Source: an uncultured Planctomycetales bacterium (lineage in GTDB: Bacteria > Omnitrophota > Gorgyraeia > Zapsychrales > Fredricksoniimonadaceae). Taken from it: a DNA stretch of 64,000 bases. Shown piece by piece: positions 4,081 through 56,150 of this stretch. The stretch is taken from NCBI GenBank assembly GCA_964520655.1, contig CAZFNI010000009.1:5909-69908 (forward strand). Direction: 5' to 3'. Positions within the stretch are counted from its first letter, which is position 1, and every line of letters begins with the position of its first letter. The position numbers and the translations under genes were made by a program. The notes below the pieces were generated by a model. It saw only the letters and a program-made list of their open reading frames with translations. It was not told the DNA's origin and ran no database searches.

Positions 4081-6953
4081 GTTTGTTTTAATTGATCGAT
4101 GTGCGTATTGACCACAACTTCATCCTTAAGGCCGTAGATGATGACCTCGGGGGACGATTCCACCGTCCCGATCTTAGCCGCGGCCATACCCTTAAATATT
4201 TTCAAAAACTCCTCTTCTTTATCCGGAGCAACCTCGGCCAGAAAACGGCTGTTGCTCTCACTAAACAATACCGCATCATCCCGTCGTAGTTTCCCGTCAT
4301 AAGGAACTTTACTCAACAAAGCTGTAACCCCTAAACCTCCGGCAAAGGCCATTTCCGCGATCGCTGCCCCTAAGCCCCCTTCCGAACTATCATGCAGGGA
4401 CTTAACCAGCCCCTGTTCTACAGCTCGGCCAACCGCCTCATATAACTTAACGGCTTTTATATAATCCACACGCGGGACTGAAGCCCCCAACTGCCCGAGA
4501 TTCTCTAAATAAATGGACCCGCCTAATTCATCATGGGTCATCCCCAACACATAAATGCTATTGCCAGCGCTTTTGAAATCCATGGTCACGCAGCGCTTAA
4601 CATTGTCGATGATCCCAAGTGATGAGATCAAGATCGTCCCCGGGATGGCGATACTTTTGCCGTCCTGGGTGTATTCATTGTAAAGACTGTCTTTCCCGGA
4701 AATAAACGGCGTTCCAAACGCCTTCGCGGCCTCGTAGCACCCTTGCGCGCAGCGCACAAGCGATCCCAAACGATCCGGCTTATCCGGATTGCCCCAGCAA
4801 AAATTATCCAGCAAAGCGATCTTCTTAAGATCCCCCCCCACCGCAATGATCTGGCGTATTGCCTCGTCGATAGTTGAGGCGGCCATCCAGAACGGGTCGA
4901 TCATGCCATAACGCACATTGATCCCGTTGGCCACCGCGATCCCTTTATCGGACCCGAGTCTCGGCCTCAAGACCGCGGCATCAGACGGACCATCGGTATT
5001 GATCCCGACCATCGGCTTAATGACCGATGTCCCCTGCACTTCATGGTCGTAGACACGGACGACGCTTTCCTTGGAGGCCACATTATAATGACCCATCACA
5101 CCCAGCAGGTCTTTGGTCAGATCTTTCTTGACCGGCAGCTTTTCTTTCTTGACCTTCGCCGGTGTATAGACCGCTTCTTTCGCGATCTTAGGCAATCCTT
5201 CGTGGATAAAATGCATGTCCAGATCGCAGACCCTGGTACCGTGATAGAACAACTGCAGACGGCCGCCGGTAAACTCACCGATCACCACCGCCTCGACATT
5301 CTCATTCTCAAATATTTTTAACAGCGCCTGGATATTCTTCGCCGGCACCGACAACACCATGCGTTCCTGTGATTCAGAGATCCAGATCTCATGGTATTTC
5401 AACCCTTGATACTTTAACGGCGCCTTATCTAAATATACTTTTGCCCCGGTCTGGGCCCCCATCTCTCCGACGGCAGAGGAAAACCCGCCGGCCCCGCAGT
5501 CCGTGATCGCGCTGTACAGCCCCGCATCCCTGGCTTTAAGCAAAGCATCCGCGACTTTCTTCTCTTCAATGGGGTTACCGATCTGCACCGCTCCGGAAGA
5601 AACTGTTTCCGATTCACTGGTCAGTTCACCCGAGGAAAATGTCGCGCCGTGTATCCCATCACGGCCGGTACGTCCTCCCACCGCAACGATCAAATCTCCA
5701 TCCCCAACTTTTTTCGTCTCTTTCCCCTTAGGGATCAATCCCACATTCCCGCAAAACACTAATGGATTTCCGACAAAATGCTCGTCGAACACAATGGCCC
5801 CGTTAACGGTCGGGATACCCATCTTGTTGCCGTAATCGCGTACACCAGAAATAACACCTTTCATGACCCTCTTGGGACTTAAGGCCCCTTTGGGCAAACG
5901 GCCAAGCGGCATCGTCGGAGGCGCAAAACAAAAGACGTCCGTATTGCATAACGGCTTAGCCGCCATCCCTGTTCCCAGCGTATCGCGGATGACACCGCCG
6001 ACGCCGGTATTGGCACCGCCAAAAGGTTCCAAGGCGGATGGATGATTGTGCGTCTCCACCTTAAAACAAACATGATACTGTTCGTCAAAAGCGATCACCC
6101 CGGCATTATCCACGAACACTGACACGCACCAGGGCTTATTGATCTCCTGGGTGGCTTTGGCGATCGTCGTCTTGAATAAACTATTGATGACCGTGGTCGT
6201 TGGCTTCTTGCCCTCTTTGGAGATAAAACGGATCTGACCGCGGAAAGTCTTGTGGTTGCAATGTTCGCTCCAGGTCTGGGCAATGGTCTCAAGCTCGACA
6301 TCCGTCGGGTTTCGGCCTTCCCCTTTAAAATAATCCTTGATCGCGCGCATTTCATTAAGATTCAAATACAGCTGCCCCAGCCGGCTTAACTCCATAAGCT
6401 TTTCATCATCCGCCTTTAACAGGTCAACCGTGATCAACTGGACTTTGCTGATCCGGGGAGACTCGATCGTCAGTGTCGCGGGCAGGACTTTGGGATCCGC
6501 CGGATGCTGGATCAATTTATTTAGGAGCACCCGCTGGGTGATGACCGACATATCTTTCGCGGTGATCTTTCCGACCAATTGATACTGACGGGCCGTGCGC
6601 ACCGCTTCGATCTTATCAAATCCCAGATCTTTGATCCCTTTAACGGTCGAGGCTTCGATAGGGTCCATGACCCCGGTATTGTAGGCGACTTCAATAATAT
6701 GGGACAAAGACCGCATTTTGCCCACGCGGTCCGCGTCTATGATGTGATATTCTTCAACGATGGGATCAACGAGCAGCTGGCTGGCGATCGTCTCTACGTC
6801 CGAGCGGCTTAAATTGCCCTGCAGCAGATACACATAGGCCATGCGCACATCCCGGATGCCTTTGATCTTAAGCTCCGCAATGTCCGCCACAATGCTTTTG
6901 CATAAACGTGCGGCAAAATCACCTTTTTGCCGCACTTCCACCCGCCAAATCAT
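4053..6953 (-). CDS. purL: phosphoribosylformylglycinamidine synthase II fused to an N-terminal PurS-like region (PurS-PurL fusion)
   Basis: 966 aa. The N-terminal ~230 aa contains two PurS-like segments (…LLVDPIVEEYHI… and …LIQHPADP…). The PurL body follows, with TWSEHCNHKTF and AIR-synthase-related domains. Confidence 0.9.
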   Translation of the reverse strand: MIWRVEVRQKGDFAARLCKSIVADIAELKIKGIRDVRMAYVYLLQGNLSRSDVETIASQLLVDPIVEEYHIIDADRVGKMRSLSHIIEVAYNTGVMDPIEASTVKGIKDLGFDKIEAVRTARQYQLVGKITAKDMSVITQRVLLNKLIQHPADPKVLPATLTIESPRISKVQLITVDLLKADDEKLMELSRLGQLYLNLNEMRAIKDYFKGEGRNPTDVELETIAQTWSEHCNHKTFRGQIRFISKEGKKPTTTVINSLFKTTIAKATQEINKPWCVSVFVDNAGVIAFDEQYHVCFKVETHNHPSALEPFGGANTGVGGVIRDTLGTGMAAKPLCNTDVFCFAPPTMPLGRLPKGALSPKRVMKGVISGVRDYGNKMGIPTVNGAIVFDEHFVGNPLVFCGNVGLIPKGKETKKVGDGDLIVAVGGRTGRDGIHGATFSSGELTSESETVSSGAVQIGNPIEEKKVADALLKARDAGLYSAITDCGAGGFSSAVGEMGAQTGAKVYLDKAPLKYQGLKYHEIWISESQERMVLSVPAKNIQALLKIFENENVEAVVIGEFTGGRLQLFYHGTRVCDLDMHFIHEGLPKIAKEAVYTPAKVKKEKLPVKKDLTKDLLGVMGHYNVASKESVVRVYDHEVQGTSVIKPMVGINTDGPSDAAVLRPRLGSDKGIAVANGINVRYGMIDPFWMAASTIDEAIRQIIAVGGDLKKIALLDNFCWGNPDKPDRLGSLVRCAQGCYEAAKAFGTPFISGKDSLYNEYTQDGKSIAIPGTILISSLGIIDNVKRCVTMDFKSAGNSIYVLGMTHDELGGSIYLENLGQLGASVPRVDYIKAVKLYEAVGRAVEQGLVKSLHDSSEGGLGAAIAEMAFAGGLGVTALLSKVPYDGKLRRDDAVLFSESNSRFLAEVAPDKEEEFLKIFKGMAAAKIGTVESSPEVIIYGLKDEVVVNTHIDQLKQTWQKPLGQS

Positions 6954-52194: not shown

Positions 52195-52225
52195 AAAAAA
52201 GACCGCGCAAGGCGGTCATTTTTAT
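52195..52225 (-). terminator. rho-independent terminator downstream of the TIR operon
   Basis: Minus-strand RNA GACCGCCUUGCGCGGUC followed by UUUUUUAUUGG. Confidence 0.5.
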
Positions 52226-52227
52226 TG

Positions 52228-52242
52228 GTAGCCCCAACGGGA
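52228..52242. repeat. 15-bp exact direct repeat of the tRNA-Glu 3' end (GTAGCCCCAACGGGA), candidate attL
   Basis: Identical to 56075-56089. That copy covers the 3' 14 nt of the tRNA plus one flanking base. Confidence 0.65.
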
Positions 52243-52305
52243 GGAAACACCATTGTCGTCGCTGACAAGTGGTTTCACCACCAAAACCACCACCAATTTC
52301 TTGGA

Positions 52306-52842
52306 TTAACCTTTACTCTTTACCCAATCACCTAACTTAGGTATCGCCTTAGGCATTAAGGGGTCGTTTACCCATATATAGTGATCAGTTTTATCAATTA
52401 GAGGATATAAGCTTAAGTACTCTGTACCAATAAAAGAACTGTCGCTTGTATCTAATATTGGTAATATGGCGACAAGATTTCTATAGGCATCAAAATAACC
52501 TAATTCCCAAGGCATCCATTTTGACGAGGGACTGTTCTCAGAGGAGCAATAAATCAAGCTTCTTGATTGTCGCATCCGTTTTCTGAGAATTTCAGCCGTT
52601 TGTTTATTGACCTTATTTCTGTCTAAATTAGTTGGTTCTGATAACCAGTCAACATAACATTTTAAACCAAAGGTGGTTTCGATATAGCTTTTTAGTTTAC
52701 GAATATATTTTTTGTCTGCATAGCTATGTGACAAAAAAATATCGAATGTGTCCCTGTCACTAATGATGGGGCGGGATGCATTTTCAAACAAACGTGTCTC
52801 GTTGGTAGATTCTTCCAACATCGCTTTAGTAAAGAATTTCAT
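52306..52842 (-). CDS. TIR-domain protein (canonical bacterial TIR)
   Basis: 178 aa. FDIFLSHSYADKKYIRKL is a betaA-type motif. SRSLIYCSSENSPSSKWMPWELGYF is the S-x-W-x-x-x-EL motif and includes the conserved Glu. Confidence 0.7.
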   Translation of the reverse strand: MKFFTKAMLEESTNETRLFENASRPIISDRDTFDIFLSHSYADKKYIRKLKSYIETTFGLKCYVDWLSEPTNLDRNKVNKQTAEILRKRMRQSRSLIYCSSENSPSSKWMPWELGYFDAYRNLVAILPILDTSDSSFIGTEYLSLYPLIDKTDHYIWVNDPLMPKAIPKLGDWVKSKG

Positions 52843-52849
52843 ATAGCTC

Positions 52850-53734
52850 CTAATTTATACGTTTTGCACACCACATAGTGTGTTCCCTAGATATTGCATT
52901 CTCAGCATTAATAATATAATCAGAGAAATCTTTTTCATCTTTAACATGTTCACCTAGGCTTTCTATGCAAGTCAATTCGTGCTCAGCCATTGAGTATGCT
53001 TGGCTAAGTTCGCTGTGTTTTTTTATCTGAATCCATGCACAAAATATCGCGACTAAAGTTGTTATGGATCCTATAGGATTAAACCAAACTTCGGGAAAGA
53101 AAATTAGCAATACAGCAACAATAATACCAACAATTTCTCCTCCTAAGATTATGAAAAACCATAAATTCTCCTGGTCTTCATTAAGTTTAGATTTACGTTT
53201 ATACCAGTGTTTTTGATCTATGATCCGTTGAGGAACATAGAGTTTTTTTCTTTCTTCAAGTGAAAGAGCTCTAATCTGCTTCATTCTTACTGATATTTGT
53301 TTCTCGCCATTGGAACAAGAAGCCATTACAGCATGCACTTCGGGATGGGATCTAAATATTTCATCTAATTCTTCAATAAATTTTTTGTCAACGTCTACTG
53401 CGGACAAATTTAATTGATATGGGTGGGCTCCCATAATATAGCGCCATGTAGCTGTCTTAACTGATTCTGCAATGGCTCGTGTGTTAAACCAGTTATCATC
53501 CCACTTTCTAATTTTTATACATAGGCGGGATAAAAAGGCAAAAAAGAGCATCACTGCCGTAATTATGGCTAAAGTAGTGCAGGTTGCTACGTTGGTTAAA
53601 ATGAAACCTCCGGAAACCGCTGCACAAAACACAAAAAAGAATTCTGCTTTAGATGCCTTAAGATAACACTCTTGTTGCTGGATTGACACCGCATCACTTT
53701 TTTGAAATAAGGCAGGGTAGTCCGAAGGCTTCAT
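52850..53734 (-). CDS. membrane protein with two 2TM modules, SLATT-like (tandem SLATT_1/SLATT_3-type architecture is inferred)
   Basis: 294 aa. TM pairs at about 28-68 and 185-225, each preceded by a polar helix and followed by W-x-Y / E-H-E-L-type helices (TATWRYIMG). The gaps to the neighbouring genes are 7 and 10 nt. Confidence 0.4.
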   Translation of the reverse strand: MKPSDYPALFQKSDAVSIQQQECYLKASKAEFFFVFCAAVSGGFILTNVATCTTLAIITAVMLFFAFLSRLCIKIRKWDDNWFNTRAIAESVKTATWRYIMGAHPYQLNLSAVDVDKKFIEELDEIFRSHPEVHAVMASCSNGEKQISVRMKQIRALSLEERKKLYVPQRIIDQKHWYKRKSKLNEDQENLWFFIILGGEIVGIIVAVLLIFFPEVWFNPIGSITTLVAIFCAWIQIKKHSELSQAYSMAEHELTCIESLGEHVKDEKDFSDYIINAENAISREHTMWCAKRIN

Positions 53735-53744
53735 TTTATTCTCC

Positions 53745-54218
53745 TTAAACAGTTGCTAATTCACGATAAAAAGCTTCGTTATAAACGTAATTACCCGAAG
53801 CATTCATTTTGTAATTCTGTATTGCATGTGCGAGTATGCGTGGTGAGAATGGAACAAACACTGCTCCAATATTTTTTATGATAGGGGGACAAGTTTCTTC
53901 TATCATTTGTTTAGAGCCGTCTAGGTTAACTCCAATAATTACACATTTTTTTTCAATTGCGACTTCCGCCTCCCAACGTACATACTTATGTTTGCTTTTA
54001 GTATCTTTGCCAATCAACATAACATATTTACTTGCCATATTGATTCTTTCGCGGCACCTACTCTTGATGTATGCCTCATCTTCAGAACGGATTTCATTTT
54101 CCAACTGGCAATCAGCAAAATCAAAATCAATCTTCTCATTCGCTTTCCAAGCCTGCATTAAACGGTAAAAATGAATATCCGTACTGCTGAAACCTACAAA
54201 GGTTCTTGGTAGTCCCAT
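53745..54218 (-). CDS. ThsB-like TIR-like protein (DUF1863 / MTH538 TIR-like family)
   Basis: 157 aa. TFVGFSSTDIHFYRLMQAW at the N-terminus, then SKYVMLIGKDTKSKHKYVRWEAEVAIEKKCVIIGVNLDG. This matches the V-x-L-I-G-x-x-T…W-V-x-W-E-I…I-I-G-V pattern as I remember it. Confidence 0.55.
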   Translation of the reverse strand: MGLPRTFVGFSSTDIHFYRLMQAWKANEKIDFDFADCQLENEIRSEDEAYIKSRCRERINMASKYVMLIGKDTKSKHKYVRWEAEVAIEKKCVIIGVNLDGSKQMIEETCPPIIKNIGAVFVPFSPRILAHAIQNYKMNASGNYVYNEAFYRELATV

Positions 54219-54291
54219 TTCGCTCTCCTTAAAATTGAAAATTAAATTAAAATTAGTTTTTGATTTGTCTTAGTACTCAAGCCATAAAAAC

Positions 54292-54333
54292 AGCCCTACC
54301 TTTCTGTTTGCTTCGAACTTGCAAGGTAGGGCC
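54292..54333. promoter_or_regulatory. hairpin / operator-like element in the TIR-operon upstream region
   Basis: AGCCCTACCTT … AAGGTAGGGC form an inverted repeat. A third forward copy, AGGCCCTACCC, sits at 54371-54381. On the minus-strand RNA the stem is followed by UGUUUUUAUGG. Confidence 0.4.
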
Positions 54334-54438
54334 TTATGATCTATACTTAGGCTTAAGCAAAAAGCGACTAAGGCCCTACCCGGTCTGATTGTCGTTAGCG
54401 GTGTAACGTGGGGCCAACCACTTACACCGCGTTTCTTT

Positions 54439-55365
54439 TTAAGACATCTGGTCCTTCCCTTCAGCATAAGGTGCGAAAATTATTGAACGCTCAAGGTCAG
54501 CCTCAGCAATAGCCGTTTGGGTTGACCTGAATGCCGTAAAAATGTTTTCCTTTGTCTCCGACGAACAGTTGTTCAAAATTATCCGGACGCTCTTCGATTC
54601 TTTGGCAAGCACTAACTTTAACCCCATACCGCCACCATCGGCTTCCCAGGCAAATTTCCCCAACAATTCTCCGCCAGAATTCTTAAACTTTGACTCATCG
54701 ACCAATATAAAGATGTTATCGGCATTCTCAATCATAGCTGATTTAACAGCGCACTCCGACGAATTATAGGCCAATAACCCATTAGAAAGACTCAATGTGC
54801 TCGCCGCCAGAAATGCCATCTTAGCCCTAAAGGAACGAAAGAATTCCGCCGCCTTGCCCACCAAACACCGTTCTTCATATAAATACCGTCCACCGGTTAG
54901 GTGCAATCGTATGTTGGGAGGGCACGTGTAGTCTGACGCCGCTACATTATTAGTGATCACATTCAAATTTATATCGTTGACCATAGGATGCAACGAAATC
55001 TCGCGGAACAGAATCTGCGTCGTTGACCCGGCATCAAGAAAGATGACGGTGGGTTCACCCTGATTTTCTTCAATAAAATATTTCTCGATTACAAAGTTGG
55101 CGATGGCCTTCTTCTTATCGGCATTGTCTTGAAACCTACGATTAACCGCACAGTCTTTTACGCCGACAATTTTTGACCGAACACCACCCCGCACTTTCAA
55201 AACCAATCCTTCTTGGTGAAGGCGATCAATGTCCTGCCATACCAATTTGATCGAGGGGTACTTGAACTTTTCCATCAATTCTTCGGAGGTTGCCATGGCC
55301 CGAGTGGTCAACTCCTGAAGAATCTGGATCTTCCTTGTATTTAGGACTTCTTTGGAAACACGCAT
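54439..55365 (-). CDS. DeoR/GlpR-family transcriptional regulator
   Basis: N-terminal HTH and the C-terminal IFLDAGSTT motif of the DeoR sensor domain. Confidence 0.7.
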   Translation of the reverse strand: MRVSKEVLNTRKIQILQELTTRAMATSEELMEKFKYPSIKLVWQDIDRLHQEGLVLKVRGGVRSKIVGVKDCAVNRRFQDNADKKKAIANFVIEKYFIEENQGEPTVIFLDAGSTTQILFREISLHPMVNDINLNVITNNVAASDYTCPPNIRLHLTGGRYLYEERCLVGKAAEFFRSFRAKMAFLAASTLSLSNGLLAYNSSECAVKSAMIENADNIFILVDESKFKNSGGELLGKFAWEADGGGMGLKLVLAKESKSVRIILNNCSSETKENIFTAFRSTQTAIAEADLERSIIFAPYAEGKDQMS

Positions 55366-55665
55366 GCCTTACCTCTTAGCAAAAGATTGATCGGAGTGCT
55401 AATATAGCAAGGAATTCTTTATTGTCAAGATTATTTTTGCGGTTATATGTAAAACTTACATAGAATATTCCATAAATACACATATAATATCATATTTTAT
55501 AGAATTATTGAGGGTACTAATAAATCTTGCTGTTGCTCAAAACCTGTCTGGCGCCTTCACTTGTAGCATGAACATCGGGGCTATGATTCGGGGTCTTTGT
55601 AGCCTGTAATGGCCACTATATCCGCTTCTACGCCACTTTCACGAAGCACATCTCCCCCAAATACT

Positions 55666-55962
55666 CTAGATATTTGAATTAACTTTTGGTAATAATCTTT
55701 TCTTTAAAAACGCAAATCCTGATCCCGCCTTAAGATATCGTTCAAAACTTTCAGCCAATACATAGCTTGCAAACGTTATATATGTCTCTACTTTCCACGG
55801 AGCGTAACGCTGACAATACCCTGTTTTTGTACGGTTATGCTCGCCTAAGCGGCGTTGTAGATCTTGGGTCATTCCAATGTATAAACGATTAGGGTCGGTT
55901 TCACTGATAAGAATATAGACGATGTGCATGTGAGTAAACAGGGGAGATTGAATACTTTCCAT
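55666..55962 (-). CDS. GIY-YIG domain protein (small UPF0213-like nuclease family)
   Basis: 98 aa with VYILISETDPNRLYIGMTQDLQRRLGEHN. Confidence 0.7.
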   Translation of the reverse strand: MESIQSPLFTHMHIVYILISETDPNRLYIGMTQDLQRRLGEHNRTKTGYCQRYAPWKVETYITFASYVLAESFERYLKAGSGFAFLKKRLLPKVNSNI

Positions 55963-56075
55963 CGGGGGAAATGGAGCAATGCTTGTATTCTACTTCGCTG
56001 AATACTTACGTGTTCAGCTTCGTAGGAATGTACTCCTGCGAAGCTGACACACGAAAGTGCGTCAGCGTAGCAGAG

Positions 56076-56150
56076 TAGCCCCAACGGGATTTGAACCCGT
56101 GTCTAAAGACTGAGAATCTTTCGTCCTGGACCAGGCTAGACGATGGGGCC
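56076..56150 (-). tRNA. tRNA-Glu(CTC)
   Basis: Hand-folded cloverleaf: acceptor GGCCCCA, D-arm GTCT/GGAC, anticodon stem AAAGA/TCTTT with loop TTCTCAG, T-arm CGGGTTCAAATCCCG. It has a G1:U72 pair, discriminator A, and no encoded CCA. The 5' end is uncertain by ±1. Confidence 0.65.

Follow-up and report, generated by a model that had tools for sequence, protein, structure and literature searches.

What kind of defense system is formed by three tightly packed minus-strand genes in which two TIR proteins enclose a SLATT-domain membrane protein? The genes, named TIR-A, thsH, and TIR-B in the order of transcription, lie in a 64,000-nt stretch of contig CAZFNI010000009.1 from an uncultured Planctomycetales bacterium; this whole stretch is called the window here. 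A sequence-only reading had proposed them as a candidate undescribed Thoeris-like module. The reading frames were found where that reading placed them, with intergenic gaps of 10 nt (TIR-A/thsH) and 7 nt (thsH/TIR-B), and a GGAG-type ribosome-binding site precedes each gene. The evidence described below identifies the locus, with a probability of about 85%, as a type VII Thoeris system (thsB-thsH) with a downstream second thsB, carried on a 3.8-kb integrase-less islet at a tRNA-Glu gene. The locus opens no new kind of system; it is a divergent type VII with an atypical extra ThsB.

Thoeris types V-XI were defined in a December 2025 preprint by Yirmiya et al. (bioRxiv 10.64898/2025.12.03.692087), in which type VII consists of a ThsB TIR and the SLATT-domain effector ThsH. 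Three type VII systems, from an Alteromonadales metagenomic scaffold, Pseudohongiella nitratireducens, and Bacillus licheniformis SCCB 37, provided phage defense, and their TIRs made canonical cyclic ADP-ribose (cADPR) solely upon infection. Added cADPR was toxic with the Alteromonadales and B. licheniformis systems, but 2'cADPR and 3'cADPR were not, and AlphaFold 3 predicted that ThsH forms an oligomer spanning the membrane, with pockets of positive charge where protomers meet. DefenseFinder models exist for all eleven Thoeris types, 29 predicted types are mentioned, and types VII and VIII together were counted in ~2% of genomes (same preprint). A conserved TIR-SLATT neighborhood, with the SLATT protein gated by an ADP-ribose derivative, had been predicted in 2022 by Iyer, Aravind, and colleagues (PMC9503650). 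The sequence-only reading had said that its claim would fall if the architecture was already a named subtype; TIR plus SLATT already has a name, type VII, and experimental validation, so "undescribed" does not hold.

In the middle protein, ThsH, Pfam recognized SLATT_3 at residues 7-163 (1.4e-35) and SLATT_1 at residues 166-288 (1e-31); NCBIfam agreed, yielding domain-level SLATT names only. The protein contains four transmembrane (TM) helices (approximately residues 32-50, 53-75, 191-213, and 217-237), and hydropathy and a confident AlphaFold2 model (pLDDT 90.4, pTM 0.83; all-helical, with two long hairpins) both place them in two helical hairpins, at approximately residues 32-75 and 191-237. 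As modeled, these hairpins fit two 2-TM units. For comparison with validated systems, the TIR sequences of Table S1 of the preprint were used to fetch the P. nitratireducens locus (L038; TIR domain 100% identical) and relatives of the Alteromonadales locus (L005, TIR 95% identical; L010, 87%). The gene directly downstream of the TIR in all three encodes a SLATT_3+SLATT_1 protein of 290-294 aa. Window ThsH aligned over its full length with the validated Pseudohongiella ThsH (32% identity, E 2e-51) and with the Alteromonadales-type ThsH of L005 (33% identity, E 2e-56). An alignment (A1) of window ThsH, the validated-type ThsHs, and 13 other homologs contained 32 invariant columns, including R86, E90, K93, W97, R98, R155, R170, E284, H285, and W288 in the soluble helices, and the invariant motifs shared with the validated proteins are RA[IV]AESVKT..WR and SREHT.W. 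The family is large: at E<=1e-5 it has 323 database members, of which the closest other than the protein itself are 59-60% identical. No related solved structure was found by sequence search or by fold (Foldseek, 0 matches at E<=0.001). No model in PADLOC-DB v2 (2023) matches the window SLATT protein; the validated Pseudohongiella ThsH is also unmatched there, so this result reflects the date of the catalog, not novelty.

Collectively, these data predict that ThsH is both the receptor of the TIR signal and a membrane-disrupting effector. Much of the sequence-only reading is borne out by them. The full-length homology to a validated ThsH supports its placement of the module among Thoeris-type TIR signaling systems, and its suggestion that the membrane protein itself acts as effector, with no SLOG or Macro reader, is exactly what the literature reports for ThsH. 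Profile searches also agreed with its three domain assignments (ThsB_TIR, SLATT_3+SLATT_1, and TIR_2/ThsB_TIR by Pfam), the two separate 2TM hairpins were recovered, no SIR2, Macro, or SLOG domain was found in the middle protein by Pfam or NCBIfam, and the NADase glutamate it noted in the last TIR aligns with the catalytic Glu of reference ThsBs.

The other features that define type VII are present as well: a ThsB-type TIR with an intact catalytic Glu adjoins the effector, and thsH follows its gene directly on the same strand. The window thus resembles the validated systems in having a TIR immediately upstream of a ~290-aa four-TM ThsH. It differs from them in the divergence of its ThsH (only 32-33% identical), in the class of its upstream TIR, which is a fourth one (TIR-A/PvP124-like), and in the extra downstream TIR, which belongs to a cluster associated with types I, IV, V, and IX. 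Type I Thoeris was rejected because its SIR2-SLOG effector, ThsA, is not present; Pfam profile searches detected no SIR2 or SLOG/STALD domain in any islet open reading frame (ORF). Type II (ThsB with a TM-Macro effector, ThsA/ThsC) was rejected because no Macro domain matched at E<=1 in the islet ORFs and because TIR-A is without the type II active-site Tyr. Type II and the window do share a membrane effector, activated in type II by a TIR-made ADP-ribose derivative and predicted to be so in the window, and TIR-A is related to type II ThsBs.

TIR-A matched Pfam ThsB_TIR (4.7e-16) and PADLOC ThsB (9.8e-42), and its catalytic Glu, E83 within RWE, aligns with that of reference ThsBs. Phe7 sits in the N-terminal motif MGLPRTFVGFSS, an N-terminus common to the TIR-A subclade. 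TIR-A is 42% identical to a type VII TIR of preprint cluster 2598792572, a cluster that also serves types II and X (Yirmiya et al.). Its nearest relative of solved structure is EcThsB2 (8V6T), which belongs to type II. Orthologs with 63-74% identity occur in ThsH loci L001-4, L090-92, and L096, and in all of these except L096 ThsH is encoded directly downstream. The partnering ThsH proteins are just 29-59% identical to window ThsH; a tight TIR-A subclade beside such divergent ThsH proteins argues for a real TIR-A/ThsH partnership, and the TIR-A class is a recurrent ThsH partner. The type II, type X, and PvP124 relatives carry Tyr at the βA position; the TIR-A subclade (window 53745-54218 and L001, L002, L079, L090-L092, and L096) carries Phe there instead. 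The active-site Tyr has been tied to TM-Macro systems that use histidine-ADP-ribose (His-ADPR) (Shi et al. 2024). The Phe-for-Tyr swap may mark a product change within the cluster, and the TIR-A subclade could make a product that differs from cADPR.

Gene context was surveyed in 43 fetched loci with a ThsH homolog, a set that is not de-replicated and is biased by fetching; in 36 of them, the gene immediately before ThsH on the same strand encodes a TIR. The partner TIRs fall into four classes, three with validated cADPR-making members and the fourth TIR-A/PvP124-like. Two TIRs are present in 7/43 loci (L001, L039, L044, L092, L094, L095, and L096). The closest relative of the window found, L001 (Logan SRR22388039), has the same TIR-ThsH-TIR order, with 74% identity in TIR-A and 59% in ThsH. 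It differs in having, downstream of ThsH, a TIR of the B. licheniformis type VII class (54-62% identity) and not of the TIR-B class, and in its location in a type I restriction-modification (R-M)/Pycsar defense island instead of a tRNA islet. Multiple divergent thsB genes are typical of Thoeris loci and broaden phage range (Ofir et al.), and the L001 arrangement shows two TIRs around ThsH elsewhere, so the two non-identical TIRs noted in the sequence-only reading are not out of the ordinary for Thoeris. The type I system of Bacillus dafuensis FJAT-25496, in which two unrelated ThsBs feed one effector with additive phage range, offers a model for why the window carries two TIRs: it shares the layout of one effector and two divergent TIRs per operon, but its effector is the SIR2-SLOG NADase ThsA and its signal is 3'cADPR.

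TIR-B is the sole unusual part of the locus, and its lineage is not otherwise seen beside ThsH in the 43 surveyed loci. The protein matched Pfam ThsB_TIR (2.3e-7), TIR_2 (1.3e-6), and PADLOC ThsB (1.1e-51); it is intact and full length and keeps all 33 family-invariant residues, including the catalytic E113 within PWELGY (SKWMPWELGYFD). Among solved structures, 8BTN is the nearest to it. Its identity to type V and IX TIRs of cluster 2612357774, a cluster that serves types I, IV, V, and IX (bioRxiv 10.64898/2025.12.03.692087), is 50-54%. Its closest relatives (54-60% identity) are all encoded directly upstream of a 130-aa 3-TM protein that has no Pfam family and matches the PADLOC candidate PDC-M50A at 2e-46. 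The PDC-M50 loci (L083:5001-6436, L085:3799-5187, L086:5001-6511, and L087:5001-5956) resemble the window in their TIR/membrane protein/TIR layout, but the small membrane protein is unrelated to ThsH. In 3/4 of them another, type I/III-like ThsB then follows, and the genes are nested between hsdS and hsdR of a type I R-M operon. This conserved trio has the look of a Thoeris-type system whose membrane effector is very small. Membership of the window itself in PDC-M50 was rejected, as no homolog of the PDC-M50A protein was found among the window ORFs.

Other relatives of TIR-B were found in viral contigs with ThsA (L103), with a caspase (L107), and, in L102, with a type VIII-like TIR and a ThsI-like effector; ThsI is the cADPR-responsive effector of type VIII. 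Two IMG/VR contigs (L105:3453-5170 and L106:3453-5213) encode a TIR-B-family TIR, a second ThsB, and a single-domain 170-aa SLATT/DUF4231 protein, a layout that is a half-size version of the TIR + SLATT theme. Judged from these gene neighborhoods, the TIR-B family is effector-promiscuous.

In the mechanism proposed for the locus, phage infection would activate a ThsB TIR, with TIR-A as the cognate partner of ThsH. From NAD+, the TIR would produce cyclic ADP-ribose as the signal, most likely in its canonical N1-cADPR form, as shown in the validated homologs. Toxicity assays and the AlphaFold 3 model in the preprint suggest that the signal would bind the cytoplasmic helical part of the four-TM ThsH, which would then oligomerize and breach the membrane, so that growth stop or cell death before release of phage progeny would result in abortive infection. 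By analogy with two-ThsB type I systems, TIR-B is most likely a second, divergent sensor that would widen phage range; the additive range conferred by the two ThsBs of B. dafuensis makes this role the most likely one.

Several observations weigh against the type VII assignment or against a role for TIR-B in it. With only 32-33% identity to validated ThsH, the ligand specificity of window ThsH could differ. Other members of the TIR-A cluster serve type II, where the signal is His-ADPR, and type X, and the one tested type VII representative of that cluster, from Bacillus sp. PvP124, gave no defense (bioRxiv 10.64898/2025.12.03.692087). A TIR-B-class gene lies beside a two-domain ThsH in 0/43 surveyed loci. 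The tested type V and IX relatives of TIR-B make 3'cADPR, and 3'cADPR failed to activate the tested type VII systems (same preprint). No other recognized defense gene adjoins the islet in the window by Pfam and PADLOC.

The main rival to a second-sensor role holds that TIR-B is the leftover of a PDC-M50-type module that recombined to the type VII pair and does not signal to ThsH; it would then make 3'cADPR with no receptor here, or be functionally idle. This is possible, if clearly the less probable account: the closest relatives of TIR-B all stand immediately upstream of PDC-M50A, that gene is missing from the window ORFs, TIR-B is the last gene before the islet boundary, its class is otherwise absent from the surveyed ThsH loci, and the 3'cADPR made by its tested relatives is not the isomer answered by tested type VII systems. 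Against a leftover, TIR-B remains full length with every family-invariant residue, E113 included, it starts 7 nt past thsH with its own ribosome-binding site and a GC content equal to that of its neighbors, and other members of its family accompany ThsI-like and SLATT proteins. The locus might be a natural hybrid, formed when a TIR from a lineage whose tested members make 3'cADPR was recruited to a SLATT effector; the validated relatives of that effector answer only canonical cADPR, and we regard this reading as rather doubtful. Should TIR-B signal to ThsH, either this ThsH clade accepts two cyclic ADP-ribose isomers or the TIR-B lineage has switched product, and comparison of TIR-B with its 54-60% identical PDC-M50 relatives would then indicate residues that set TIR product specificity.

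That TIR-B is instead an NAD+-depleting effector, activated directly or by the signal and giving a two-effector system that combines membrane damage with NAD+ loss, is improbable. Many bacterial TIRs act in this way, the preprint warns of it for unverified configurations, and in L005 a CAP12/Pycsar-type effector TIR is encoded directly downstream of ThsH; TIR-B, however, is a bare 178-aa TIR in which Pfam detects no sensor domain for a nucleotide signal, the tested TIRs of its ThsB cluster produce the signal in types I, IV, V, and IX, and it is unrelated to the CAP12-type family. Least credible of all is that the SLATT protein serves a cyclic-oligonucleotide-based antiphage signaling system (CBASS)- or Pycsar-like system with its cyclase elsewhere, the flanking TIRs being unrelated to it. 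SLATT domains were first defined as SMODS/SLOG-associated effectors and do occur in CBASS, but all islet ORFs are accounted for and none encodes a CD-NTase (SMODS) or pyrimidine cyclase (Pfam), and the SLATT_3+SLATT_1 family, which includes the validated ThsHs, consistently adjoins TIR genes. A type VII system with TIR-B as its probable second sensor is therefore retained as the preferred reading. As such, the locus contributes a single divergent member to a defense family that was only recently defined and is already abundant. Its value is modest: type VII Thoeris is seen traveling on a minimal islet anchored at a tRNA, the TIR-A type is documented as a fourth, conserved class of TIR that partners with ThsH, and a natural mixed-lineage two-TIR locus becomes usable for examining signal compatibility between Thoeris types, with the compatibility of TIR-B and ThsH as a modest residual question.

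The coordinates of the three genes and of the islet that carries them are collected in Table 1.

Table 1. Features of the tRNA-Glu islet and its Thoeris genes (window coordinates)
Feature	Coordinates	Strand	Evidence or role
Intrinsic terminator	52201-52217	minus	6-bp GC-rich stem then TTTTTTATTG; directly past the distal repeat
15-nt direct repeat, distal copy	52228-52242		Exact copy of the tRNA-Glu 3' end; att-like boundary
TIR-B (second thsB), 178 aa	52306-52842	minus	TIR with catalytic Glu E113
thsH, 294 aa	52850-53734	minus	SLATT_3+SLATT_1 membrane effector
TIR-A (thsB), 157 aa	53745-54218	minus	Predicted sensor and signal-producing TIR
Terminator-like hairpin after DeoR	~54287-54333		11-bp hairpin then U-run, z = -2.2
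DeoR-family regulator, 308 aa	54439-55365	minus	Pfam DeoRC 1.1e-26, plus helix-turn-helix
GIY-YIG nuclease-family protein, 98 aa	55666-55962	minus	Pfam GIY-YIG 6.9e-13
15-nt repeat, proximal copy	56075-56089	minus	Last 15 nt of tRNA-Glu
tRNA-Glu (CUC)	56075-56150	minus	ARAGORN; Rfam tRNA 59 bits; insertion site of the islet

The 3' end of the minus-strand tRNA-Glu gene reads TCCCGTTGGGGCTAC, and this exact 15-mer recurs 63 nt beyond the TIR-B stop codon; it has 2 matches in the window, against 0 expected from shuffled sequences. An exact tRNA-end repeat at both ends indicates that ~3.8 kb (52243-56074) was inserted at the tRNA-Glu 3' end. The GC content of the TIR-A, thsH, and TIR-B genes is 0.36-0.37, compared with 0.40 for the islet and 0.50 for the flanks, and together with the repeat this upholds the earlier description of an AT-rich tRNA-anchored islet. 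The strong terminator directly past the distal repeat probably belonged to tRNA-Glu at first and now serves the Thoeris operon as well. DNA 100% identical to the islet region occurs in three unrelated sequencing runs.

The islet encodes only GIY-YIG, DeoR, the two TIRs, and ThsH, and Pfam found no integrase among its ORFs; the flanking genes are not defense genes by Pfam and PADLOC. The GIY-YIG protein is the only nuclease-like gene product of the islet, encoded at the tRNA-proximal end, the usual place of an integrase. DeoR and GIY-YIG were rejected as components of the system and are treated as island cargo, because their homologs were not found near any other ThsH locus and because DeoR seemingly has its own terminator. 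The spacer between DeoR and TIR-A (54287-54395) contains three copies of GGTAGGGC/GCCCTACC, two of which build the 11-bp hairpin. This hairpin is probably the DeoR terminator, and it could be a regulatory site. An RNA element in the islet was also considered and rejected, as Rfam finds the tRNA only.

Elsewhere, close ThsH homologs share defense islands with Pycsar, type I R-M, and a helicase of SLFN-like type. Right after the TIR-ThsH-TIR genes of L001 (L001:7460-10462), a Lipase_3 protein and a Pycsar pair (Guanylate_cyc + PycTM) are encoded, so that two signaling defense systems stand side by side. At the second-closest ThsH loci to the window (L002:6986-7831, also L003 and L004), the downstream TIR is replaced by a 281-aa protein that combines TPR repeats with a hydrophobic segment at the N-terminus. 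The effector TIR of L005 (L005:2558-3313; 251 aa, PF10137, 8.4e-30) may be a second effector answering the same signal. More complex operons, of a sort mentioned in the preprint (bioRxiv 10.64898/2025.12.03.692087), occur at L094:4001-8299, L095, and L096:4001-8888, where TGT-like, Ogg-HhH, and QueC genes, which resemble Cap10, Cap11, and Cap9 of type IV CBASS, stand between ThsH and two TIRs further downstream; L096 additionally carries a ThsI-like MAP3K_TRAF_bd+TPR-S gene. No TIR is present within 4 kb at L097:2602-8259 and L098, where the gene directly upstream of ThsH is ThsI-like. A Macro-domain protein is encoded nearby, on the opposite strand or downstream, as is a metallo-beta-lactamase that matches the Apyc1 (Anti-Pycsar) family and may degrade a signal; the combination of these effectors with such an enzyme is odd. 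The ThsH homolog at L056:4417-5301 is split into two ORFs (4417-4995 and 5023-5301) and is probably a frameshifted or decayed copy.

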